Virus record (IMG/VR): IMGVR_UViG_3300030390_001073 | Reading direction: 5' to 3' (one strand) | Origin: an uncultured virus (IMG/VR IMGVR_UViG_3300030390_001073) | Taxonomy: Duplodnaviria > Heunggongvirae > Uroviricota > Caudoviricetes | Length of the DNA stretch: 20,000 bases | Shown here: piece after piece, positions 1 through 19,999 of the stretch | How the letters are laid out: each line of letters starts with the position of its first letter | Numbering within the stretch: position 1 is the first letter of the stretch | Notes under the pieces: generated by a model | Database searches by the model: none | Told to the model about the DNA's origin: nothing | The model's input: only the letters and a program-made list of their open reading frames with translations | Position numbers and translations under genes: made by a program

Positions 1-1
1 A

Positions 2-199
2 GATGAGGATGAGATGGTTGAGATAGCTACAAACCTCGACATGTTTGTAGAACTACAGACTGAAAACGGATTAGATGTAGATGAGGTAAAAGAGTATTAC
101 CTGAATTCAGGATTTCCTCAATACGATGCAGAACCATACAAATCGTATACGGATGAAGATTGGATTGACCACGCAAATGAAAACGAATTAGAAAGATAG
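2..199 (+). CDS. Acidic hypothetical phage protein, probably 5'-truncated by the window edge
   Basis: The frame is open from position 2 (DEDEMVEIAT...) to TAG at 197-199. Very acidic, no recognisable motif. Confidence 0.7.
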   Translation, partial: DEDEMVEIATNLDMFVELQTENGLDVDEVKEYYLNSGFPQYDAEPYKSYTDEDWIDHANENELER

Positions 200-212
200 C
201 CAACAGGAGTGA

Positions 213-244
213 TTTGGTAGTTTCGTTTATTTTTCGTACATTTG
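213..244 (+). promoter_or_regulatory. Bacteroidota-type sigma70 promoter (-33 TTTG / -7 TAnnTTTG)
   Basis: TTTG at 213-216, 20-nt spacer, TACATTTG at 237-244, in an intergenic gap. Matches the established Bacteroidota consensus. Confidence 0.8.
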
Positions 245-247
245 TAC

Positions 248-274
248 TATCCTGAGCAAGATATTAAACTGCTC
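248..274 (+). ncRNA. Compact H-type RNA pseudoknot at the predicted transcript 5' end
   Basis: Stem 1 TATC(248-251)/GATA(260-263). Loop bases GAGCA(254-258) pair with TGCTC(270-274). A-rich linker TTAAAC(264-269). Confidence 0.6.
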
Positions 275-323
275 CTGTATCGAGATGAGTGTCTCGGCTG
301 ATGATTCCAAAAGGATGAAACAG
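275..323 (+). ncRNA. Type III hammerhead ribozyme, predicted cleavage 3' of GUA (after nt 279)
   Basis: Stem III CTGT(275-278)/ACAG(320-323); H17=A279; stem I TCGAGAT(280-286)/GTCTCGG(291-297); core CTGATGA(298-304); stem II T-TCC-AAAA-GGA-T(305-316) with a non-canonical U.U at 10.1/11.1; core GAAA(317-320). Confidence 0.85.
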
Positions 324-344
324 AAACTTTAATTTAATAACATT

Positions 345-590
345 ATGAGAAAATTAAGAAAATTACACATTTACTTTATGAATGCAATTACGTTTGCAGT
401 AGCATTAGGAGTAATAGGTATGGTAGGCAACTTGCTTGTACACCTAGTTAACAATGACATCACAGGTGTTGGGGATTTCCTAGCATGGATGGTGGCAGTA
501 GGAATTTACTTAGCAGTAAGTTATTTAATATTTGGTCTTATCATTTTATCACACAAAGATGACATGAGAGACTTTAACTTAAACAACTAA
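345..590 (+). CDS. Small membrane protein with two predicted TM helices
   Basis: Basic N-terminus followed by two long hydrophobic stretches. Leader AATAACATT-ATG. Confidence 0.8.
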   Translation: MRKLRKLHIYFMNAITFAVALGVIGMVGNLLVHLVNNDITGVGDFLAWMVAVGIYLAVSYLIFGLIILSHKDDMRDFNLNN

Positions 591-594
591 AACT

Positions 595-750
595 ATGGTA
601 ACTGAACTAACAGAGATTACAAAGTATATAAGAATATACAATAATCCATCAAACGAAAAAGCGTATAACGAAGCATGTGAATACCTACTACAGGTTCACA
701 GAAAGTGGGGTACATGCGATGTTTCACTAATTAAAAATCTATTAAAATAA
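595..750 (+). CDS. Hypothetical protein, 51 aa (missing from the ORF track)
   Basis: Translated by hand: MVTELTEITKYIRIYNNPSNEKAYNEACEYLLQVHRKWGTCDVSLIKNLLK*. Fills the gap between neighbours; leader AAAACT-ATG. Confidence 0.75.
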   Translation: MVTELTEITKYIRIYNNPSNEKAYNEACEYLLQVHRKWGTCDVSLIKNLLK

Positions 751-756
751 AACATT

Positions 757-1134
757 ATGAAAAACTTATTAAAACAATTAAAAACTAGAGTAAAGATTGA
801 ACATCATAAATCTCAAGTTCAATTATTAGAATCCATTTGGCTAGATGAACTAGCCAATCATCATCGAGAGAAGACACATTGGAACAGAGAAGACACAGAA
901 GAGTCTTGGGATAATGTTGAAGAACTTTACAAAGAGATGAGGATGTATAAAATAGAACATCGAGAAATCCTTAAGCTAGATAATGATACTCGACTAGCTC
1001 ATAGCATTGTTAATGACCTTGTAATGACATCTAATTGGCATACAAACTTCATTGACTACGTTCAGGGAGATAATAGTAATTTGTATAACACAGCATGTGA
1101 ATTCGCTGATAAAATCGAAAGCTATGAAAGTTAA
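757..1134 (+). CDS. Hypothetical phage protein
   Basis: 125-aa ORF with leader AAAACATT-ATG, tightly packed with neighbours. Confidence 0.8.
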   Translation: MKNLLKQLKTRVKIEHHKSQVQLLESIWLDELANHHREKTHWNREDTEESWDNVEELYKEMRMYKIEHREILKLDNDTRLAHSIVNDLVMTSNWHTNFIDYVQGDNSNLYNTACEFADKIESYES

Positions 1135-1399
1135 AATACAACAACGAAGTGTCTATCACAAATTTGCTGAGATAGAAATAGAAATACCTGATGTTGTTGC
1201 ACCAAGTGATGAGTGTGACATTCAAGATTATCTCTACGACAACGAACATTTATGGGTAGATAAAATTGACCATAAAATTAATGAATCTGAGTTTGTTTTT
1301 GGAACAGGCTTGTACGACATTGAAGGAATGGATGATGCAGAGTCTGATTCTGAATGGAGATATGATTGTCCACAATTAAAGATAGGTGGACATTTATAA
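1124..1399 (+). CDS. Acidic hypothetical phage protein (start revised to 1124)
   Basis: MKVKIQQRSVYHKF...KIGGHL. ATG 1124 gives a short overlap with the upstream gene instead of 83 nt. Confidence 0.75.
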   Translation: MKVKIQQRSVYHKFAEIEIEIPDVVAPSDECDIQDYLYDNEHLWVDKIDHKINESEFVFGTGLYDIEGMDDAESDSEWRYDCPQLKIGGHL

Positions 1400-12152: not shown

Positions 12153-12555
12153 AAATGAAAAAGATTTAGAAAGAGAGAAGAAAGCTATCAAGACATTTGT
12201 AACAGAATTTAATGGTAGCTTTAAAAAACTTGATGACAACGATATAGACTTTAAAATTTTTGATAGTAAAGGAAATCATATAGCTTATGCAGAAGTAAAA
12301 GGAAGATTAAAAAGTATAAAAGATGCCTACCCTTTACCTGTAGCAGCTAGAAAACTTGTAAAACTTGCTGATAAAAGATTAAATCCTGTTATGATTTGGA
12401 GTTGTTTTGATGGAATAATATACTGTCAAGTAAAACATATGAGAGGGTTAGTAACATGGGGAGGAAGAAAACCACGAACACATTCATATAACGACCAAGA
12501 ACTAATGATTTATTTTAACAAGAAAGATTCTCCCTTTAAAATTATTTCTTTTTAA
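12142..12555 (+). CDS. PD-(D/E)XK superfamily nuclease-like protein
   Basis: N-terminal helix with RE, then IDFKI...AYAEVKGR (D...EvK). Confidence 0.65.
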   Translation: MRFENEKDLEREKKAIKTFVTEFNGSFKKLDDNDIDFKIFDSKGNHIAYAEVKGRLKSIKDAYPLPVAARKLVKLADKRLNPVMIWSCFDGIIYCQVKHMRGLVTWGGRKPRTHSYNDQELMIYFNKKDSPFKIISF

Positions 12556-15500
12556 GTTTTTCTTTTAACTTTCTCTTTTCAGCATCTAAATTTTTAACTG
12601 TTTCATAAAGTTTTGGATTAAACTCTTTAAGTATTTTCCTGCTTATTCCTTTGCCACTTCCCTTTTTAGTTCCACGCTTTCCTGATGCAGGTCTGCCACC
12701 TTGAGGTACACCCAATATATCATAGATATATTGTTCAGTATCTTCGCCATTCATTATTATATTAACACCACCTTCAAAGAAGTCAAATTGAAATCCTGCC
12801 AAAAATTCTGCAGCAGGTTTTAAACCTTTTAATACCTCATTATCTCCAAACTGTCTCATCATTTCTCGAGTTATTCTTTCAACAGGTTCAACTGTAGATT
12901 GATTTCTCTCAAAAGCAGTCATTTTTCTTCCTTTTACCATATAAAAAAGAAATGAATTTATTGTACCTCCTAATACAGGAACTTGTTCTAGTTGTGATGC
13001 ACCATACATAGCTAATTTTATTTTGTCATAAGCTTTTTCTTTCTCTTTGTCATCACCCCTCATTAAAACAAACATCTGTGATGCCATAACAAAGAACATA
13101 GGTGCTAAAGCTCCTGATAATAATAATCCTCTGACATCTGCTTGATTTACTTTGTTTTCATTAGAAAAAGCTTCTTTAAAATTACCTTTTAGAATTTCTT
13201 CTCCTTGATTACGAAGACTTCTACTAATATTTCTAAATCTCATTGCATTTTCATTCAATAGTAAAAGTAGTGAACTTCCAAATGTAGTAAACAATCGTAA
13301 TAAACCACCTTCCATTTGAAGACCACCTTTATCCATATCTCTTCGAGATTGTTGAGTCATGTTGTATTCAACAAATCTCATGGTAGCATCTATTTCAGAC
13401 ATTCCGTTTGCAATGTCTTGATTATATGTAGCTAAATAACCTAGCACACCCAATATATCTCCTATTGTAGTACCCGCTCCTAAAAAAGCATTTATTTTTT
13501 CACTTAATTGTCTTGGAGTAAGTTCTATTTTATTCAGTCCCGGCAATTTCATAACATACTTAATTCCAAATTCACCAAGAGCTACTTGTGTATTTAAACC
13601 GAGCTTTTGACCTGACTCTAATTCTGCTATACTAGCTCCTGTTAAAGCATCAGCCATTCTTTTTTCAAATCCTGCTGATATTCTTTTAGCTGTTTTCATT
13701 CCACCTTCTTTTCCTAAAGCTGTCATAGCTAAAACTTGAGCATATCTAAACGTAAACATTAATGCATCTAAAGGAAGGGCAGGTAATTCAGCTGCTAAAC
13801 CTGTAATTCCACCTTTTTTTCTAGCTCTTCCTAATGTACCTAAAGCTCCTTTTTGTTCTGTAGTAAAGTTAGTAAACGCCATTATAGATGATGTAAATTG
13901 TTTAGGTATTTGCATCAATTTTAAATTAAGTGTATAAGAGATAAATCCTCCCATTACAAAATTTATTAAAGCATTCATTTGTGTAGAATTACCAAGCGTA
14001 CCATTAATAGAATAATTTAATAATTTATTAACGAGGTCTGTAGTTCCTGTTGCATCTAATAAATTAGCTATAGATGGAGTATTTAAAAGTTTATTAAACA
14101 AAGAAACAGTATCGGCATAAGCTTTATACCTTTCCATTTCTTGAATATGATTGTTTAATTTATTTGTAAAACTAGAATTTAAATCAAGAGGACCTTTCTT
14201 TCCTCTTGTTTTTACACTACCCGGAGAATTGCCTTTAAATGCTGAACCATAATTATTAGGGTTTTGTAAATCTGCTTGTTGACTTTTTCTTGAATCAAAC
14301 TGTACAGCTACAGGAAAATAATCTTGTATTTTTTCAAGAGATACATCATTATTTTTTATATATACATTGTTGACACCTTCAAAATAAGTATTAGTCAACC
14401 ACTCTACAACCCCGTCTACATAGGCAACTAATTTATTTCCTAAATGTTTTTGTATTTGTTCTATAATTTCATCTGTTATGCCTTGTTCTTTTTGACGTTT
14501 TCTTGTGTCATTATTTTTACTATAAGCATACATACTCATTAACATGTCAGCATCAAAAAGTTTTCTTTTACCGTCAATTACTAATTCTAAATTTGGTTTA
14601 CTGTATATTTCTTGTGGTAATCCTACAACTCTACCTTTAGTTATACCGGCTTTTTTTGCTATGTTATCTAATTCAGTATTACTATCTCTTATACCCTCTT
14701 CTCTATTAAAATTAGAAGTTGTCAATCTTTTTTGAAACACTCTAGTAAAGAATTTTCCTTTACGACCATCAAGCATATTAAATACTGTTCCTGTGTGAGA
14801 TAATAGACCATCAAAGAATTGTCTTAACGTTACAGCCGGGTTCACACTTGCACCTATATTTTTATATCCACTAAAAAATTGTTCTGCATAATCTCTTGCA
14901 GTTTGCACAAATCCATTATCTTTTAAAGAAGTTAATATGTTTTTTCTATTATTATTAATTTCTTCAGGAGTTAATGGTCTACCACTTTCATCGAATAAAA
15001 AAGGATTGTCTGCTAAAATATCTTTATCGGCTTCTCTTTCTAGTTTTGCAGCTTCTTTTCTTCTGTTATCAATTCTATCTAAAAGTTTCTTTCTAGATTC
15101 TTTTGTCTCTTCTTTTAAAGCTTGAAACATATCTTCGAGTTCAGCTAAGGACATTTCATTTACATTACCCATTCTTGAATATGCTTCTACTTCGGCTAAA
15201 AGTGTAACTTGGTCTGAATTTAAAATATTTTGAGAATTTAAATCGTCAGCCAAAGCTTCATCTATTTCTGATTCTTTTTTAGCTAGTTCTTCTTGTTTAG
15301 AATTTAATTCATCAGGTGTCATCTGCATTAGTCTATCTACAGCTTTAAAAAACTCCATTCCTCTGTACTCAACAGTTCCTGCTTTAGGTTTCTTAGCACT
15401 TTTTTTAGCTTTACTTTTAGATTTAACGTAATCTGAAATTTTATTTCTTAAATCTTTAATATCTTTTGCTATAATTACATCGGCTATATCTTGAACTTCT

Positions 15501-18500
15501 AATACAGTTGCTCTAAAGTTATCTTCATTTACCTTAGCCATCTTTTTTATTAATCTATCTAACTTAGCTTTATTAATATTATCTGACTTAGGTATTAGTG
15601 CTTGTATTACGTTTTGTAATTTATTTCTAGTAGCTAAATTAACTTTGTCTTGTTTTTTACGACCTCTTAATTCAGAAAGAATTTCATTTATTTCTCTTTG
15701 TGTTTGCACACCTGCCTTGCTTCCTAACATCTTATCATAAGCAACAATCAAGTTTTGTCTGTCTAATTCAGATAAGCTTTTAAATTTTTCATTGCTTTCA
15801 ATTTCTTTTTTCCTAGCTTCTCTCTCTGATTTATTATTAGTACGTTTACCTTCAGCTTTATCTTTTGCTTGTCTAGCTTCACGAACTTGGTCTAGTTCTT
15901 GCAGGATTTCTCTACCAACATTTATACCACCTTCTATATTAGCAAACGCAGGAGGTACTTGTATGTTAATAGCCATATCATCTACTGCTTTTTTAGCATC
16001 TGTTCTAGACAATTTATTTCTTTTAACTAATACCTCAATTATTTGATTCTTTGTAAACCCTAATTGTCTTCCACGATAAATAACGTCTTCTACTGACAAT
16101 CCTTTTCTAAATGCTAATTCAGGATTTTTTAAAGCTTTCTTTTGTATATCTGTTAAAGCTATTTCTTTACCACTAAATATATCTGCTAATGCAGTTCCAA
16201 TAAACTTATCAAGATTCATGTCTCGAATCTCTTGTTCGGTCAAGTCTTTAGACATTTTAAATTGACTCTTGATATATTTCCACATACCAAATAACCATTC
16301 TTTAAATTTAGAAAGTAATGTTGAATTAGCTATAGTTTCGCCTTCGTTACCAATTAAAATAGCCATTGTTTCGTCAGCTGCTTTTTTAGAATCGCCATCA
16401 AACTTTTTTAATTGTTTCTTATATTCATCTGTTTTGCTAACTAACTCTACACCTCTTGCATATATACGTTTGCCTTTAGCAGTTGTTTGTAAATAGTCAG
16501 TCCAAATGTGACCCATCTCATGTATTGCTGTATTATATAAAGAGCTTTCATTATTATGTACATCAGGATTTATATATATATCTCCATTTTTAGTAACACC
16601 ATATATTACTTCATTGCCTTTTAAATACTTTTGAGTACCGGGTTCATTGATAACTTGTTGAAACACCTCACTATCTACACTCATCATCACGCTAGGAAAA
16701 GATTTGTTAATGAAGTTTACAAGTTTATTAATATTGCTTTGGTTATAATTAGCTAACGCTCCTATGTAATCTTTAGAAGCTATGCCAATGCCAATGCCTG
16801 TTTGATTAGTTCTTAATTGTTTACCCGTAACTTTTGTGCTAGATTTTTTTACTGTTTTACCTTTTACTTTTTTCTTAGAAGGTGTTTGTTCTTTTTCTAT
16901 TAAACTTCCTAAAGCTTTTTCATATGCTATAGGATAAGCTTTCTCCATTGCCACCGGATTAGATAAAACCCCTATTGATTTTCCTTTAGGTGCAAACGGA
17001 TAGTTAGGATGATTAGATTTAAGAACTTCAGGATTTAAAACATCTACACCTACAACACCAATTATACTTAACTCAGGCACATTTTTTAATTGTGGGTCGG
17101 TAATAATTTCTGCAATGCTTCCAATGTTAACTAATTTATTATTAGATTTATCTTGATTCTCCATTAAAGCTCTAGTAACTGTAGAGCTTTTAGCAATAGT
17201 ACCGGCTTCTTTAGTTTCATTTGGTTTGTTAACCGTACCGTATCCTATTATTTTCATAAGATTAGCTCTAGCTCCAAGTCCTAATTTATCAACAAATGCA
17301 GGTGCTACTACATCATCAATAGAATTAAGGTTATCAGATTCTAACAATGCAATTATATCATTAAATGGTTTCTTTTTATCCGACTTATCTCTTCGGCTTA
17401 TAATTTCTTCCTTCAAAGCTTCTAAAGCTTTTACTCTATTTTCTTCAGGTAACTTAGTAATATTGTCAGCCAAGACTCTAAACATAGCTTCATTAGATAC
17501 AATACCATCTTCAGCCATTTTAACTACATTAACCATAACCAAGCCATTGTAATCAGGATTTTCTTCCCAAAATTTATCGTAAACTTCTTTATTGTTATTA
17601 TATATATTTTGAGCTTTATTAATCATTCCTTGAGCAGTCTTTTCATTAGTGCTTGCCCAAGCAGCGTTTTCATTTCCTACCGTACCATTAAAACCTATAG
17701 CTCCTTTTAAATTATCTATTGTTTTTCCTGTATTTGGATTGACTGTATTACCTGTTGTAAGTTGGTCAGATATAGTAAATGAAGTTGGTAAATCATTTAC
17801 AACATCGAAAGTTGTTTCATTTAATTTATTATCTGTTCTGTTGTTTAATTCATCAACATCTATAGATACACTTTCTTCATCTCTTTCAATTTTAACATTT
17901 ACGTTATCACTTTCTAATTCGTTAATTTTTGAAGTTATATTTTCTACTCTTTCTCTATTTGGTTCAGTAACAGCATCATCTTTTAATCTAAAATTAACTG
18001 ACTCATCTACATCTAGTTGTTGTTCAAGTCTTTCTACAGCTTCCATGTCAACATCCTCAGTTGTTTCCGATTCATAAACAATTTCAAAAGTTCCGTCAGG
18101 ATTAATTTTTTCTATAACAGATACATCATCTAAAGTATAACCACCTTTTATATGACCATCAACGTCATTTTTCATTCTAAGTTTATTGTCAGGTAAAGCA
18201 GAATCTATTACATCTCCTTTATAAGTTACTCTATATTCAGCATCTGTAGCTGTTGTAACTTTTTCTGAGTTGGTAACATCTACACCAAAGGATTTGTTTT
18301 TACCTTCAATAGTTTCATTATTATTAAGAGCATCAACTTCAGATTGTCCTACAAATCTATAAGTAGGTTTAAACTTCCAATCAATTCCATACTTCTCAAA
18401 TCTTTGTTGCATATCAACATCCCCTGCTCTTGCTTTTTCTAAATCACTTATTTCTTGTTGGTTACTTTCTCCGGAAGATTCTTGATTTTCACCGGGTACT

Positions 18501-19999
18501 TGTTCTTCCATTTGTTGAACAGGTCCTTTCGGTTGGCTGCTAGCCATCTCGCTTGTCTCTTGCTTTGTATCGGCATCGGTATCTATTTTTATTAATTCAG
18601 ATGGGTTAAGGTCAATCCCTAACATATCTGCTTCTTTCATTTTTAATTCATTTATTTTTTGAGCTACTATATCTCCTAATTCTTTTCCTAATTTCTCATT
18701 ATCAAACACTTGTATACCAACAGCTGTACGCCAATCGGTCATTTTACTTACATACTTTCTAAATTTATTTTCGTCTTCTGTTGCTACGTTTCCAACTCTA
18801 AATTGAGGTCTTGGTCTATTAAAAGTATTAATTTTAGCAACATCATTCCCTGCTAAACCCTCTGTTAAATTTGTTGGCTTTGTAGAGACTTCTCCCATAA
18901 CAACAGTCTTAGCTATTTCTAAATTTATTTCTTTTAGTTTTTCTTTATATATCTCTCTTCTATTTATATCAGAACCTAAAATTTGTTTAGCATTTATTAA
19001 TTGCATCATTCTTGAAACTACTTGTGGAGAAGCATCTACTCCTGCCATATTAATAGCATCTCTTTTAATCCCAATATTTTTCTTTACATTTTGACCTTGA
19101 GCTTCATCAATTTTGTTTGTTTCAATCATTCTATTTATATAGTCTACAACTTGTTTGTCTGTAGCTTCATTATAATTAGATATAAATCGAGGGTCTGTAA
19201 GGTTTCTAAAAAATTGGTCTCTTTTAGATTCTCTGTTTATTAACATTATATTTACAGCACCATTAGAAACTTGTGTTCCTAAACCTCCACCAATTTCTGC
19301 AACTATTTCTTTGCCATCAAATTCTTGTCTTCCTGTTTCAAAAAACATTTCACTTGTTTGTGCAGCAATTTCACTTGTTGCTTCACCACCTACACCTATA
19401 CCAACTTCTCCAAACAATGCAACACCTACATTTACAGCACCTTTAGCTGAAATAACAGGATTTGTTGCACTTAAAAGTTTTCCGGCTAATCCTGCTGTAA
19501 AATAACTAACAACAGCAATTGGTATACCTCTTGCATGACCTTGTGCATTAGCTTGTTTCCACATTACATCATCCATTAAAGCTGCTTCAACATCTTCAGG
19601 ATTAGTTAAATCATAATCCATAGCAGTCATGGTTTCCATTACAGCATTAGTATATTCCATTGCATAAGCTGTAGCTGCAAAACCTGTTCGCAATCCATAA
19701 CCTAAACCTGTAAGAGCTCCTCCTGCTACAGTTGCAGGATTACCACCTAACGCACCATATCCCGCTCCTACTCCTGCTCCTGTTGCACCACTTACAGTTA
19801 CTATTTGACTACCATATTCTAACATTTGACCTAAACTATTAGCTGACAATTGCATTGCCCACTCTACAGGGTCGTTTTGTATTACATTAAATATTTCTTC
19901 CCATGATTTTGCCTTGTTCCATGCTAACATAGTTCTTGTATCTCCCATAGCAGCTTTGTTTCTAACTCCCTCTACAATAGCTCTTGCTACAGATTTAAC
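12542..19999 (-). CDS. Giant polyvalent / internal virion (ejection) protein, 5'-truncated
   Basis: The frame stays open upstream of ATG 19948 to the window edge (VKSVARAIVEGVRNKAAM...). Gly/Ala-rich hydrophobic N-terminal part, ART-like module, zincin HEMGH, coiled coils, amphipathic/hydrophobic C-terminal region and a basic tail. Confidence 0.85.
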   Translation of the reverse strand, partial: VKSVARAIVEGVRNKAAMGDTRTMLAWNKAKSWEEIFNVIQNDPVEWAMQLSANSLGQMLEYGSQIVTVSGATGAGVGAGYGALGGNPATVAGGALTGLGYGLRTGFAATAYAMEYTNAVMETMTAMDYDLTNPEDVEAALMDDVMWKQANAQGHARGIPIAVVSYFTAGLAGKLLSATNPVISAKGAVNVGVALFGEVGIGVGGEATSEIAAQTSEMFFETGRQEFDGKEIVAEIGGGLGTQVSNGAVNIMLINRESKRDQFFRNLTDPRFISNYNEATDKQVVDYINRMIETNKIDEAQGQNVKKNIGIKRDAINMAGVDASPQVVSRMMQLINAKQILGSDINRREIYKEKLKEINLEIAKTVVMGEVSTKPTNLTEGLAGNDVAKINTFNRPRPQFRVGNVATEDENKFRKYVSKMTDWRTAVGIQVFDNEKLGKELGDIVAQKINELKMKEADMLGIDLNPSELIKIDTDADTKQETSEMASSQPKGPVQQMEEQVPGENQESSGESNQQEISDLEKARAGDVDMQQRFEKYGIDWKFKPTYRFVGQSEVDALNNNETIEGKNKSFGVDVTNSEKVTTATDAEYRVTYKGDVIDSALPDNKLRMKNDVDGHIKGGYTLDDVSVIEKINPDGTFEIVYESETTEDVDMEAVERLEQQLDVDESVNFRLKDDAVTEPNRERVENITSKINELESDNVNVKIERDEESVSIDVDELNNRTDNKLNETTFDVVNDLPTSFTISDQLTTGNTVNPNTGKTIDNLKGAIGFNGTVGNENAAWASTNEKTAQGMINKAQNIYNNNKEVYDKFWEENPDYNGLVMVNVVKMAEDGIVSNEAMFRVLADNITKLPEENRVKALEALKEEIISRRDKSDKKKPFNDIIALLESDNLNSIDDVVAPAFVDKLGLGARANLMKIIGYGTVNKPNETKEAGTIAKSSTVTRALMENQDKSNNKLVNIGSIAEIITDPQLKNVPELSIIGVVGVDVLNPEVLKSNHPNYPFAPKGKSIGVLSNPVAMEKAYPIAYEKALGSLIEKEQTPSKKKVKGKTVKKSSTKVTGKQLRTNQTGIGIGIASKDYIGALANYNQSNINKLVNFINKSFPSVMMSVDSEVFQQVINEPGTQKYLKGNEVIYGVTKNGDIYINPDVHNNESSLYNTAIHEMGHIWTDYLQTTAKGKRIYARGVELVSKTDEYKKQLKKFDGDSKKAADETMAILIGNEGETIANSTLLSKFKEWLFGMWKYIKSQFKMSKDLTEQEIRDMNLDKFIGTALADIFSGKEIALTDIQKKALKNPELAFRKGLSVEDVIYRGRQLGFTKNQIIEVLVKRNKLSRTDAKKAVDDMAINIQVPPAFANIEGGINVGREILQELDQVREARQAKDKAEGKRTNNKSEREARKKEIESNEKFKSLSELDRQNLIVAYDKMLGSKAGVQTQREINEILSELRGRKKQDKVNLATRNKLQNVIQALIPKSDNINKAKLDRLIKKMAKVNEDNFRATVLEVQDIADVIIAKDIKDLRNKISDYVKSKSKAKKSAKKPKAGTVEYRGMEFFKAVDRLMQMTPDELNSKQEELAKKESEIDEALADDLNSQNILNSDQVTLLAEVEAYSRMGNVNEMSLAELEDMFQALKEETKESRKKLLDRIDNRRKEAAKLEREADKDILADNPFLFDESGRPLTPEEINNNRKNILTSLKDNGFVQTARDYAEQFFSGYKNIGASVNPAVTLRQFFDGLLSHTGTVFNMLDGRKGKFFTRVFQKRLTTSNFNREEGIRDSNTELDNIAKKAGITKGRVVGLPQEIYSKPNLELVIDGKRKLFDADMLMSMYAYSKNNDTRKRQKEQGITDEIIEQIQKHLGNKLVAYVDGVVEWLTNTYFEGVNNVYIKNNDVSLEKIQDYFPVAVQFDSRKSQQADLQNPNNYGSAFKGNSPGSVKTRGKKGPLDLNSSFTNKLNNHIQEMERYKAYADTVSLFNKLLNTPSIANLLDATGTTDLVNKLLNYSINGTLGNSTQMNALINFVMGGFISYTLNLKLMQIPKQFTSSIMAFTNFTTEQKGALGTLGRARKKGGITGLAAELPALPLDALMFTFRYAQVLAMTALGKEGGMKTAKRISAGFEKRMADALTGASIAELESGQKLGLNTQVALGEFGIKYVMKLPGLNKIELTPRQLSEKINAFLGAGTTIGDILGVLGYLATYNQDIANGMSEIDATMRFVEYNMTQQSRRDMDKGGLQMEGGLLRLFTTFGSSLLLLLNENAMRFRNISRSLRNQGEEILKGNFKEAFSNENKVNQADVRGLLLSGALAPMFFVMASQMFVLMRGDDKEKEKAYDKIKLAMYGASQLEQVPVLGGTINSFLFYMVKGRKMTAFERNQSTVEPVERITREMMRQFGDNEVLKGLKPAAEFLAGFQFDFFEGGVNIIMNGEDTEQYIYDILGVPQGGRPASGKRGTKKGSGKGISRKILKEFNPKLYETVKNLDAEKRKLKEKLKKK
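16140..16740 (-). other. Zincin-like metallopeptidase domain within the giant protein
   Basis: IYGVTKNGDIYINP...TAIHEMGHIW (HExxH at nt 16508-16522, about aa 1143), then DETMAILIG with a candidate third ligand. Boundaries approximate. Confidence 0.75.
18060..18430 (-). other. Probable ADP-ribosyltransferase-fold domain within the giant protein
   Basis: TYRFVGQSEVDAL...GVDVT...EYRVTY...DVDGHIKGGYTLDDVSVIE follows ART strand order; bounded by acidic low-complexity linkers. Boundaries approximate. Confidence 0.5.

Follow-up and report, generated by a model that had tools for sequence, protein, structure and literature searches.

Why a phage should pack a promoter-like block, a small pseudoknot and a hammerhead ribozyme ahead of its early genes is the question raised by IMG/VR record IMGVR_UViG_3300030390_001073, an uncultured Caudoviricetes virus of which a stretch of 20,000 nucleotides (nt), hereafter the window, was analysed. 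The cassette fills the intergenic interval 200-345, flanked by + strand open reading frames (ORFs) that end at 199 and start at 345. The original prediction, whose element coordinates are correct on sequence reading, took it for a purpose-built small-RNA unit. We arrive at a different reading, to which we give about an even chance: an RNA-processing cassette whose cut would leave the upstream RNA capped at its 3' end by the pseudoknot and give the downstream early mRNA a 5'-OH. At the level of sequence comparison, two conserved folds and their genomic contexts can be shown; cleavage in vivo, use of the promoter and a protective role of the knot are what we infer.

The hammerhead carries a complete conserved core on sequence reading (C3 U4 G5 A6 N7 G8 A9, G12 A13 A14 and the A15.1-U16.1 pair). 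Position H17, which must not be G, is A279 here and A, U or C in homologues. Rfam at gathering thresholds returned zero matches over the entire window. A permissive scan of 301 bases (150-450) aligned Hammerhead_3 (RF00008) end to end with 272-326 at 27.5 bits (E 5.6e-4), below the gathering score of 48.5. Thermodynamics alone is uninformative on this cassette, since the minimum free energy folds of 248-345 and 275-323 were no more stable than shuffles (z -0.58 and -0.79). The support is comparative. When window positions 1-1200 were compared with GenBank phages by blastn, only 277-321 was matched, in 65 Pseudomonas Bruynoghevirus records (91-93% identity over 45 nt). The exact 24-mer running from CUGAUGA to GAAAC was present at 37 IMG/VR loci, which together with phage PAA2 and the window gave 29 distinct 56-mers; locus L011 was excluded and 28 were aligned. 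In these 28 sequences both stem I and stem III are 100% paired, with 6/6 pairs of stem I and 2/4 pairs of stem III changed on both sides. The covariation score was 0.601 as against 0.162 for shuffled alignments (0/500 reached it) and at most 0.112 for slid partners. Stem II shows no variation because the search pattern fixed it.

On these data the hammerhead is genuine, and its placement from 275 with a cut after A279 is borne out by the covariation of stems I and III and by its PaP3-type relatives, the products being predicted ones. It is not fully canonical: all 28 rows have a U305-U316 mismatch at 10.1/11.1 in place of a Watson-Crick pair. The available text of Perreault et al. (2011; PMC3088659) states that stem II of natural hammerheads can open with a U10.1-U11.1 mismatch and, in the legend of Fig. 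S6, lists the hammerhead of phage PaP3 among active core variants. As a documented natural variant, the mismatch is therefore no bar to membership. The PaP3 genome has an element of the same subfamily (stem II UUCC-UAAA-GGAU), presumably the PaP3 hammerhead tested in that study, and self-cleavage at A279/U280 is predicted by homology to it. The window hammerhead is thus a previously unrecorded member of a known, bench-tested U10.1-U11.1 subfamily. It scores 79.7 bits with our own model R1, the alignment of which includes the window sequence. G-C occupies 10.1/11.1 in the first hammerhead of G001, the contig of the closest relative, and in relatives L203 and L206, where this canonical G10.1-C11.1 pair is combined with a loop I identical to that of the window. 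For annotation this means that a hammerhead subfamily scores below the Rfam threshold and escapes standard pipelines.

Two further hammerhead arrangements were observed. L011:595-680 (- strand) holds a circularly permuted, type I hammerhead with an identical stem II/loop II module, UUCC-AAAA-GGAU, which indicates that this module travels between topologies. On a Polynucleobacter metagenome-assembled genome (MAG) contig, L206:447-772 (- strand) contains two subfamily hammerheads separated by ~215 nt, of which the second comes immediately after a knot.

The 27-nt H-type pseudoknot predicted from 248 also proved to be real. It is single-copy in the window, allowing up to 3 mismatches. A search pattern with 14 fixed and 5 two-fold positions, which left the outer three stem-1 pairs free, matched at least 133 viral loci and at least 119 genome-contig loci; all knot counts given here are among the matches listed. 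In 132 distinct 32-mers the free stem-1 pairs were paired in 130, 132 and 102 cases, using all four Watson-Crick types, so that stem 1 covaries freely. Stem 2 showed joint G-C to A-U switches 20 and 10 times, with mismatches only 3 and 1 times. Overall, 97.0% of cells were paired and the score was 0.482 (0.174 shuffled, 0/500 reaching it; slid partners at most 0.141). The knot of L038, which precedes a subfamily hammerhead, has compensatory changes in both stems (ACAC/GUGU and GAACA/UGUUC). On bacterial and archaeal genome contigs both stems were kept in 89/120 matches, and the remaining 31 look like chance occurrences in coding sequence. The 89 kept knots come from Bacteroidota, Bacillota, Pseudomonadota, Cyanobacteria, Saccharibacteria, Aminicenantes, Planctomycetota and others. 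The flanks of the knot are G-poor. Such covariation indicates a genuine fold at 248-274.

The knot is not wholly uncatalogued, because it corresponds to the first 27 positions of the GP20-b model, Rfam RF03003 (Weinberg et al., 2017), a family typed as cis-regulatory and without mention in the main text of the 2017 paper; the available part of Fremin et al. (2023; PMC10690425) mentions GP20-b with its function given as unknown. Locus L285 reached 41.3 bits with that model (gathering score 36.2), and L233 and L227 align to it over the knot with scores below gathering. GP20-b itself had no match in window positions 150-450 at E up to 10, and neither preQ1-I nor any other riboswitch family was among the 4 Rfam matches obtained there at that limit. 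The knot is therefore a widespread module, in part already catalogued as GP20-b. Literature searches returned unrelated papers only for 'CUGAGCAAG', nothing relevant for H-type pseudoknots in phages, and no papers for DUF2800 with an RNA motif.

The genomic contexts of the knot bear more directly on its role. An ORF of 60 or more codons has its stop codon 5-9 nt before the start of the knot in 71/144 cases, and 5-13 nt before it in 83/144. Only 2/144 knots lie less than 5 nt from the upstream stop codon, and 27/144 have no end of such an ORF within 70 nt upstream. The proteins encoded upstream are diverse (phrog_1221, ribonucleotide reductase, Hsp20, peroxiredoxin), mostly belonging to no family. 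What follows the knot varies too. A tRNA starts 4-14 nt behind it in 20/219 distinct knots, with 0/219 having a tRNA within 160 nt upstream. A T-run follows directly in ~33/141, a Shine-Dalgarno sequence with a start codon in ~35/141, and sigma-70-like promoters lie behind the knot at four flagged loci (L060, L066, L077 and L130). Rfam scans of 80 knot loci added tRNAs directly behind the knot in L063 and L178, a DUF2800 RNA 1-2 nt behind it at L054:260-445 and L278:142-324, far above gathering, and a twister-P1-like match 2 nt behind it at L220:501-578 (54.3 bits, gathering 67.2, E 5e-10). The knot is a stand-alone phage module, tied neither to hammerheads nor to promoters.

Several other roles were considered for the knot and set aside. 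Mimicry of a type III antitoxin or of a CRISPR repeat had no supporting feature. Mimicry of a tRNA acceptor was rejected as ACC followed the knot in only ~20/140 cases (by eye), and stimulation of recoding as there is no extended reading frame downstream.

Two side observations concern sequences upstream of knots. At L174, L188, L195, L209, L212, L225, L230 and L287 a conserved gene end (...tgcgcactgtgcagaaggatgt...) lies 40 nt upstream of the knot; on these contigs, from Aminicenantes-type and other MAGs, it may encode a Cys-rich peptide tail of a small-peptide family with the knot in its 3' untranslated region. At L228:557-698 (- strand) a HEARO/IscB-guide-like match of 54.6 bits, below gathering and cut at its 5' end, ends ~30 nt before the knot.

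The linkage of knot and hammerhead, whose absence from related phages would have counted against the original prediction, does recur, although the knot mostly occurs without a hammerhead. It is present 5' of 6/28 distinct subfamily hammerheads (the window, L013, L016, L024, L030 and L038), and G001 has the pair twice. Starting from the knot, model R1 found an adjacent hammerhead at 1/133 viral loci (L042) and 2/119 genome loci (L203 and L206), all three with other stem II variants, and another hammerhead variant was seen by eye behind the knot of L041. Most other subfamily hammerheads have a strong plain hairpin in the slot of the knot. Whatever the fold, its last paired base lies 0-1 nt from stem III in 19/26 distinct hammerhead loci, compared with a mean of 6.05 for shuffles (maximum 10 in 40 rounds) and 4-8/26 for windows displaced by 60-150 nt. 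Knot and hammerhead thus appear to be portable modules that combine yet are independent of each other. As a separate observation, long hairpins with a conserved GUGUC-(4-6 nt)-GACAC top end 0-1 nt before stem III at L004, L005, L006, L007, L014, L026, L027, L032 and L036; they sit ~25-45 nt upstream of the hammerhead and may be a recurrent element family of their own.

The closest relative gives the most detailed view of this combination. G001 is the contig of L013 and is 99% complete (CheckV). An ArdC-like anti-restriction gene ~450 nt from the contig end finishes with a TAG stop, and a knot begins 5 nt later, which leaves no room for a promoter between them. The order is ArdC-like gene, knot, hammerhead, gene 2, promoter-like block, knot, hammerhead and small early genes. 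In the first cassette the knot variant has U at the counterpart of A259 and the hammerhead has a canonical stem II; the second is followed by homologues of the small ORFs of the window (56% identity).

A consensus promoter was proposed to end at 244. The sigma-A consensus of Bacteroidota is TTTG / TAnnTTTG, as -33 and -7 motifs, and this pattern is present in block 213-244. The pattern has 3 matches in the window versus 2.0 expected, a number reached by 62/200 shuffles, so that the match alone proves nothing. L013/G001 has a nearly identical block (~32-34 nt) in spite of divergence in the coding sequence on its flanks. The other four of the five related loci (L016, L024, L030 and L038) lack the block, and there the knot lies 6-7 nt after a stop codon. 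Whether the block serves as an internal early promoter is close to an even call. A start at 248-249 would keep stem 1 of the knot, and one at or beyond 250 would truncate it.

The RNA-processing cassette that we favour would work as follows. The hammerhead would fold in the early-operon transcript and cut itself after A279. The downstream product would be an early mRNA with a 5'-OH, beginning directly at the stem I hairpin; a 5'-OH end and a 5' hairpin are both expected to slow decay that depends on the 5' end. The upstream product would be an RNA ending in the knot plus CUGUA with a 2',3'-cyclic phosphate, a tail probably too short for 3' exonucleases to grip. Flush on the 4-bp stem III, the knot would act as a structural end-cap that shields the new 3' end from 3'-to-5' exonucleases; stacking of the knot on the ribozyme, with an insulating effect, is probable as well. 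The pyrimidine loop 1 opposite a purine-rich stem-2 strand, together with the A-rich loop 3, suggests base triples, which would give the knot mechanical strength and explain part of its sequence conservation. If block 213-244 fires, the same cut would free the ~32-nt knot RNA as a by-product. We favour this reading because the hammerhead has covariation and its PaP3-type kinship behind it, because the upstream fold abuts stem III, because the knot tracks the end of the upstream gene, and because it lies 5' of sites at which RNA ends are formed. The arrangement in G001, with a first cassette too close to a gene end for a promoter, also speaks for it.

Several observations weigh against it. In the window the distance from stop codon to knot is 49 nt in place of the usual 5-9 nt, and the conserved promoter-like block falls within it. 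Of the 20 tRNA cases, 15 are tRNA-Asp from phages related to one another and so do not count as independent. The knot of Bacillota prophages stands behind a terminator-like hairpin and T-run and before scaffold (GP20) or head-protease genes, and in that setting, with the cis-regulatory typing of GP20-b, it looks like a 5'-leader element rather than a 3' cap. Stem 2 and the loops are far more conserved in sequence than a mere roadblock needs, which hints at a specific partner or ligand, though the conservation is partly by design because the pattern fixed 14 positions. Finally, contigs of the window from RNA libraries (2 libraries) span 805-1082 only.

These points feed the competing accounts. 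High sequence conservation of the knot would suit the specific binding partner of a dedicated unit, in which a start at ~248 and trimming by the hammerhead give a ~32-nt trans-acting RNA, for instance a decoy for a host factor during takeover. Such a unit would also make sense of a promoter-like block that ends 3 nt before the knot and was retained in L013 in spite of diverged coding sequence on its flanks, and of the gapless packing of three elements. It is nevertheless very improbable. The promoter pattern is not enriched in the window. The block is missing from 4/5 related knot-hammerhead loci, and in these, as in the leading cassette of G001, a stop codon precedes the knot by 5-7 nt and no promoter is present. 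Beyond these loci, knots mostly lack a hammerhead, usually begin too soon after a stop codon (5-9 nt) for a promoter to fit, and lie for the most part inside mRNAs with nothing to free a 5' end. Most subfamily hammerheads have an ordinary hairpin instead, and a start at or beyond 250 would cost the knot part of stem 1. The ~32-nt RNA itself may form if the promoter fires, but the comparative data make it likelier to be a by-product than a purpose. The same near-invariance of loops and stem 2, across hosts of many phyla, could instead mark a specific binding site, either a riboswitch-like aptamer or a conserved site for a protein, the ribosome or RNA polymerase, that regulates the downstream gene, termination or the ribozyme. 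An architecture like that of the smallest aptamers (preQ1-I type) and identity with the 5' half of GP20-b, with its cis-regulatory label and its place upstream of scaffold (GP20) genes, agree with this. We hold it to be decidedly unlikely, since the upstream and downstream genes share no common function as they would in a riboswitch regulon, no Rfam riboswitch family matched at E up to 10, and the cut, where a ribozyme follows, separates the knot from the downstream gene.

The abutment on stem III can be explained without any role after cleavage if the knot, or a plain hairpin, is a folding clamp or insulator: stacked coaxially on the weak 4-bp stem, it would protect a ribozyme, tRNA or twister against interference from upstream sequence and from terminating ribosomes. 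The excess of folds 0-1 nt from stem III over displaced controls (19/26 versus 4-8/26) and the knots ending 1-2 nt before the twister-like match and the DUF2800 RNA would fit such a clamp, as would the weak stems III described as common in the available text of Perreault et al. (2011; PMC3088659). Stacking, however, cannot operate across the 4-14 nt that precede tRNAs, and many knots have no detectable structured RNA behind them (no Rfam match behind the knot at 20/20 loci without an obvious feature). A start codon or T-run often follows, and a clamp gives no reason why the stop codon should lie at a fixed 5-9 nt upstream, so that a clamp alone is unlikely. The T-runs (~33/141) and the sigma-70-like promoters behind the four knots named above would be expected if the knot were a compact intrinsic terminator or attenuator that lowers read-through, the hammerhead being unrelated. 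With a stem 2 of only 5 bp, and no T-run behind the knot in the window (CUGUAUCGAG) or before tRNAs and ribozymes, this is scarcely probable at all.

If the end-cap reading is extended beyond this locus, the 27-nt knot might be a universal, host-independent end-cap for phage RNA, a counterpart in the bacterial world of exonuclease-resistant viral RNAs. We put this forward tentatively, as a possibility that is less likely than not. Were it true, the knot would be paired with any feature that forms an end, be it a ribozyme (hammerhead or twister), a U-run or RNase P acting at a tRNA; phages would set the 3' ends and lifetimes of individual messages without host terminators, and Rfam GP20-b would represent a single local application. 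Hammerheads have been on record between genes of phages since 2011. An abutting knot or hairpin gives a first concrete, testable idea of what the upstream message may gain from the cut, an idea that arises because such a fold lies flush 5' of the ribozyme and because the same knot precedes tRNAs and a twister-like match. The new point is this pairing of a proposed end-cap with ribozymes and RNase P sites. Should the knot prove to block exonucleases, it would be useful as a part for RNA stabilisation and for making insulated operons, and GP20-b would be explained.

Table 1. Features of the cassette and its flanks in the window.
Feature	Position	Strand	Description
Upstream ORF, 3' part	2..199	+	65 aa visible; TAG stop 197-199; same strand as cassette
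Bacteroidota-type promoter-like block	213..244	+	TTTG 213-216, 20-nt spacer, TACATTTG 237-244
H-type pseudoknot, 27 nt	248..274	+	UAUC-CU-GAGCA-A-GAUA-UUAAAC-UGCUC
Knot stem 1	248-251 with 260-263	+	
Knot stem 2	254-258 with 270-274	+	5 bp
Knot loops	252-253; 259; 264-269	+	CU; A; UUAAAC (L3)
Type III hammerhead	275..323	+	CUGU-A / UCGAGA-UGAGUG-UCUCGG / CUGAUGA / UUCC-AAAA-GGAU / GAAA-CAG
Stem III	275-278 with 320-323	+	4 bp, open end
Predicted self-cleavage site	279..280 (A279 / U280)	+	From hammerhead geometry: U16.1 = U278, H17 = A279
Stem I	280-285 with 292-297	+	Loop UGAGUG
Core CUGAUGA	298-304	+	
Stem II	305-308 with 313-316	+	UUCC-AAAA-GGAU, loop AAAA, U-U at 10.1/11.1
GAA	317-319	+	A15.1 = A320, paired with U278 (U16.1)
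A/U-rich short leader	324..344	+	Between ribozyme and next start codon, without Shine-Dalgarno sequence
First downstream early ORF	345..590	+	81 aa, hydrophobic; small ORFs, then replication genes behind

The genes around the cassette are listed in Table 1. The upstream ORF has no PHROG family match and no detectable relationship to gene 2, which holds the same position in G001, so that a second cassette before the start of the window cannot be inferred. Leaders comparable to that behind the ribozyme occur 3' of the hammerhead in relatives. The 81-aa ORF, assigned to no protein family in PHROG and Pfam comparisons, shares 56% identity with its counterpart after the cassette of G001. For a 2468-aa ORF on the - strand (12542-19948), too, neither Pfam nor PHROG gave a family at the thresholds applied. 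The phage is a marine one, its sequence being present in marine metagenomes (sequencing-run contigs). Its host is likely to belong to the Bacteroidota, because the 806-aa primase/helicase-like protein matches mainly phages of Flavobacterium, Nonlabens, Polaribacter, Cellulophaga, Maribacter and Tenacibaculum; the class is probably Flavobacteriia. Both hammerhead and knot are missing from positions 30,000-60,850 of MW202828, the closest GenBank record by that protein (70% identity). In two marine runs of unknown library kind, contigs break at 294/300, in the hammerhead core shared with an L013-like variant; a variant contig carrying L013-like changes spans window positions 207-294, and two related phages with a common hammerhead core seem to co-occur in those samples.

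Among known systems, relatives in shape are the preQ1-I aptamers and the frameshift knots of luteoviruses, compact H-type pseudoknots of 27-34 nt with a short loop 1 and an A-rich loop 3. The knot of the window resembles them in size and in both loops, of which loop 3 could be accommodated in the stem-1 minor groove, and its 5-9 nt spacing behind a codon elsewhere recalls recoding knots. It differs in having no sequence relation to them, no extended downstream frame and no coherent regulon. Positions 1-27 of the GP20-b model form a knot of this kind, in which a 5-bp stem closes a loop of 10-11 nt with UAAAA at its end and the 5' flank is complementary to the loop. GP20-b also requires a second hairpin and an A-rich tail, and its place is ahead of GP20 scaffold genes in phages of Bacillota; the window, with no GP20-b match and a downstream ORF of no assigned family, shows none of these.

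The hammerhead has its nearest counterpart in the PaP3-type ribozyme of Bruynoghevirus, within which activity was tested for PaP3 only. Both have the same core, a stem II with U10.1-U11.1, a 6-nt loop I (UGNGUG) and a stem III of 4-5 bp; their 91-93% identity over 45 nt comes with compensatory changes in stems I and III. Both also lie close to early genes, the ribozyme being immediately 5' of orf01, the first early gene, in phiIBB-PAA2 and PaP4. In the Pseudomonas phages, however, a different, GC-rich hairpin takes the place of the pseudoknot, and the 3' strand of the ribozyme runs into the start codon, unlike in the window. At L001:1113-1140 (phiIBB-PAA2) the 3' strand of stem II (AAGGA) lies 7 nt before the orf01 ATG and the 3' strand of stem III overlaps that ATG, so that in these phages the ribozyme fold could mask or expose the ribosome-binding site. 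The first 2200 nt of phage LUZ24 contain no hammerhead of the PaP3 type, and a literature search pairing hammerheads with LUZ24 found no papers. The LUZ24 ONT-cappable-seq data (Putzeys, 2024) were considered as transcript evidence and set aside, as the 3' end T001 at 998 in the available part of that report lacks a hammerhead core.

The clustered prophage hammerheads of Perreault et al. (2011; PMC3088659) offer a comparison in arrangement. They flank single genes or short blocks, as the two of G001 surround one gene of the early operon, and the role proposed for them is to turn long phage transcripts into gene-length mRNAs. A conserved pseudoknot 5' of each ribozyme is not described in the available text of that article, where the pseudoknots are internal to the ribozyme, between loop I and stem II or the tail.

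The closest functional parallel to the end-cap reading is found in the early genes of T7. There, an intercistronic cut by RNase III leaves a stable 3' structure that stabilises the upstream mRNA. In T7 the cut depends on an enzyme of the host and the structure left behind is a plain hairpin; in the cassette described here the RNA itself would make the cut, and the cap would be a pseudoknot.

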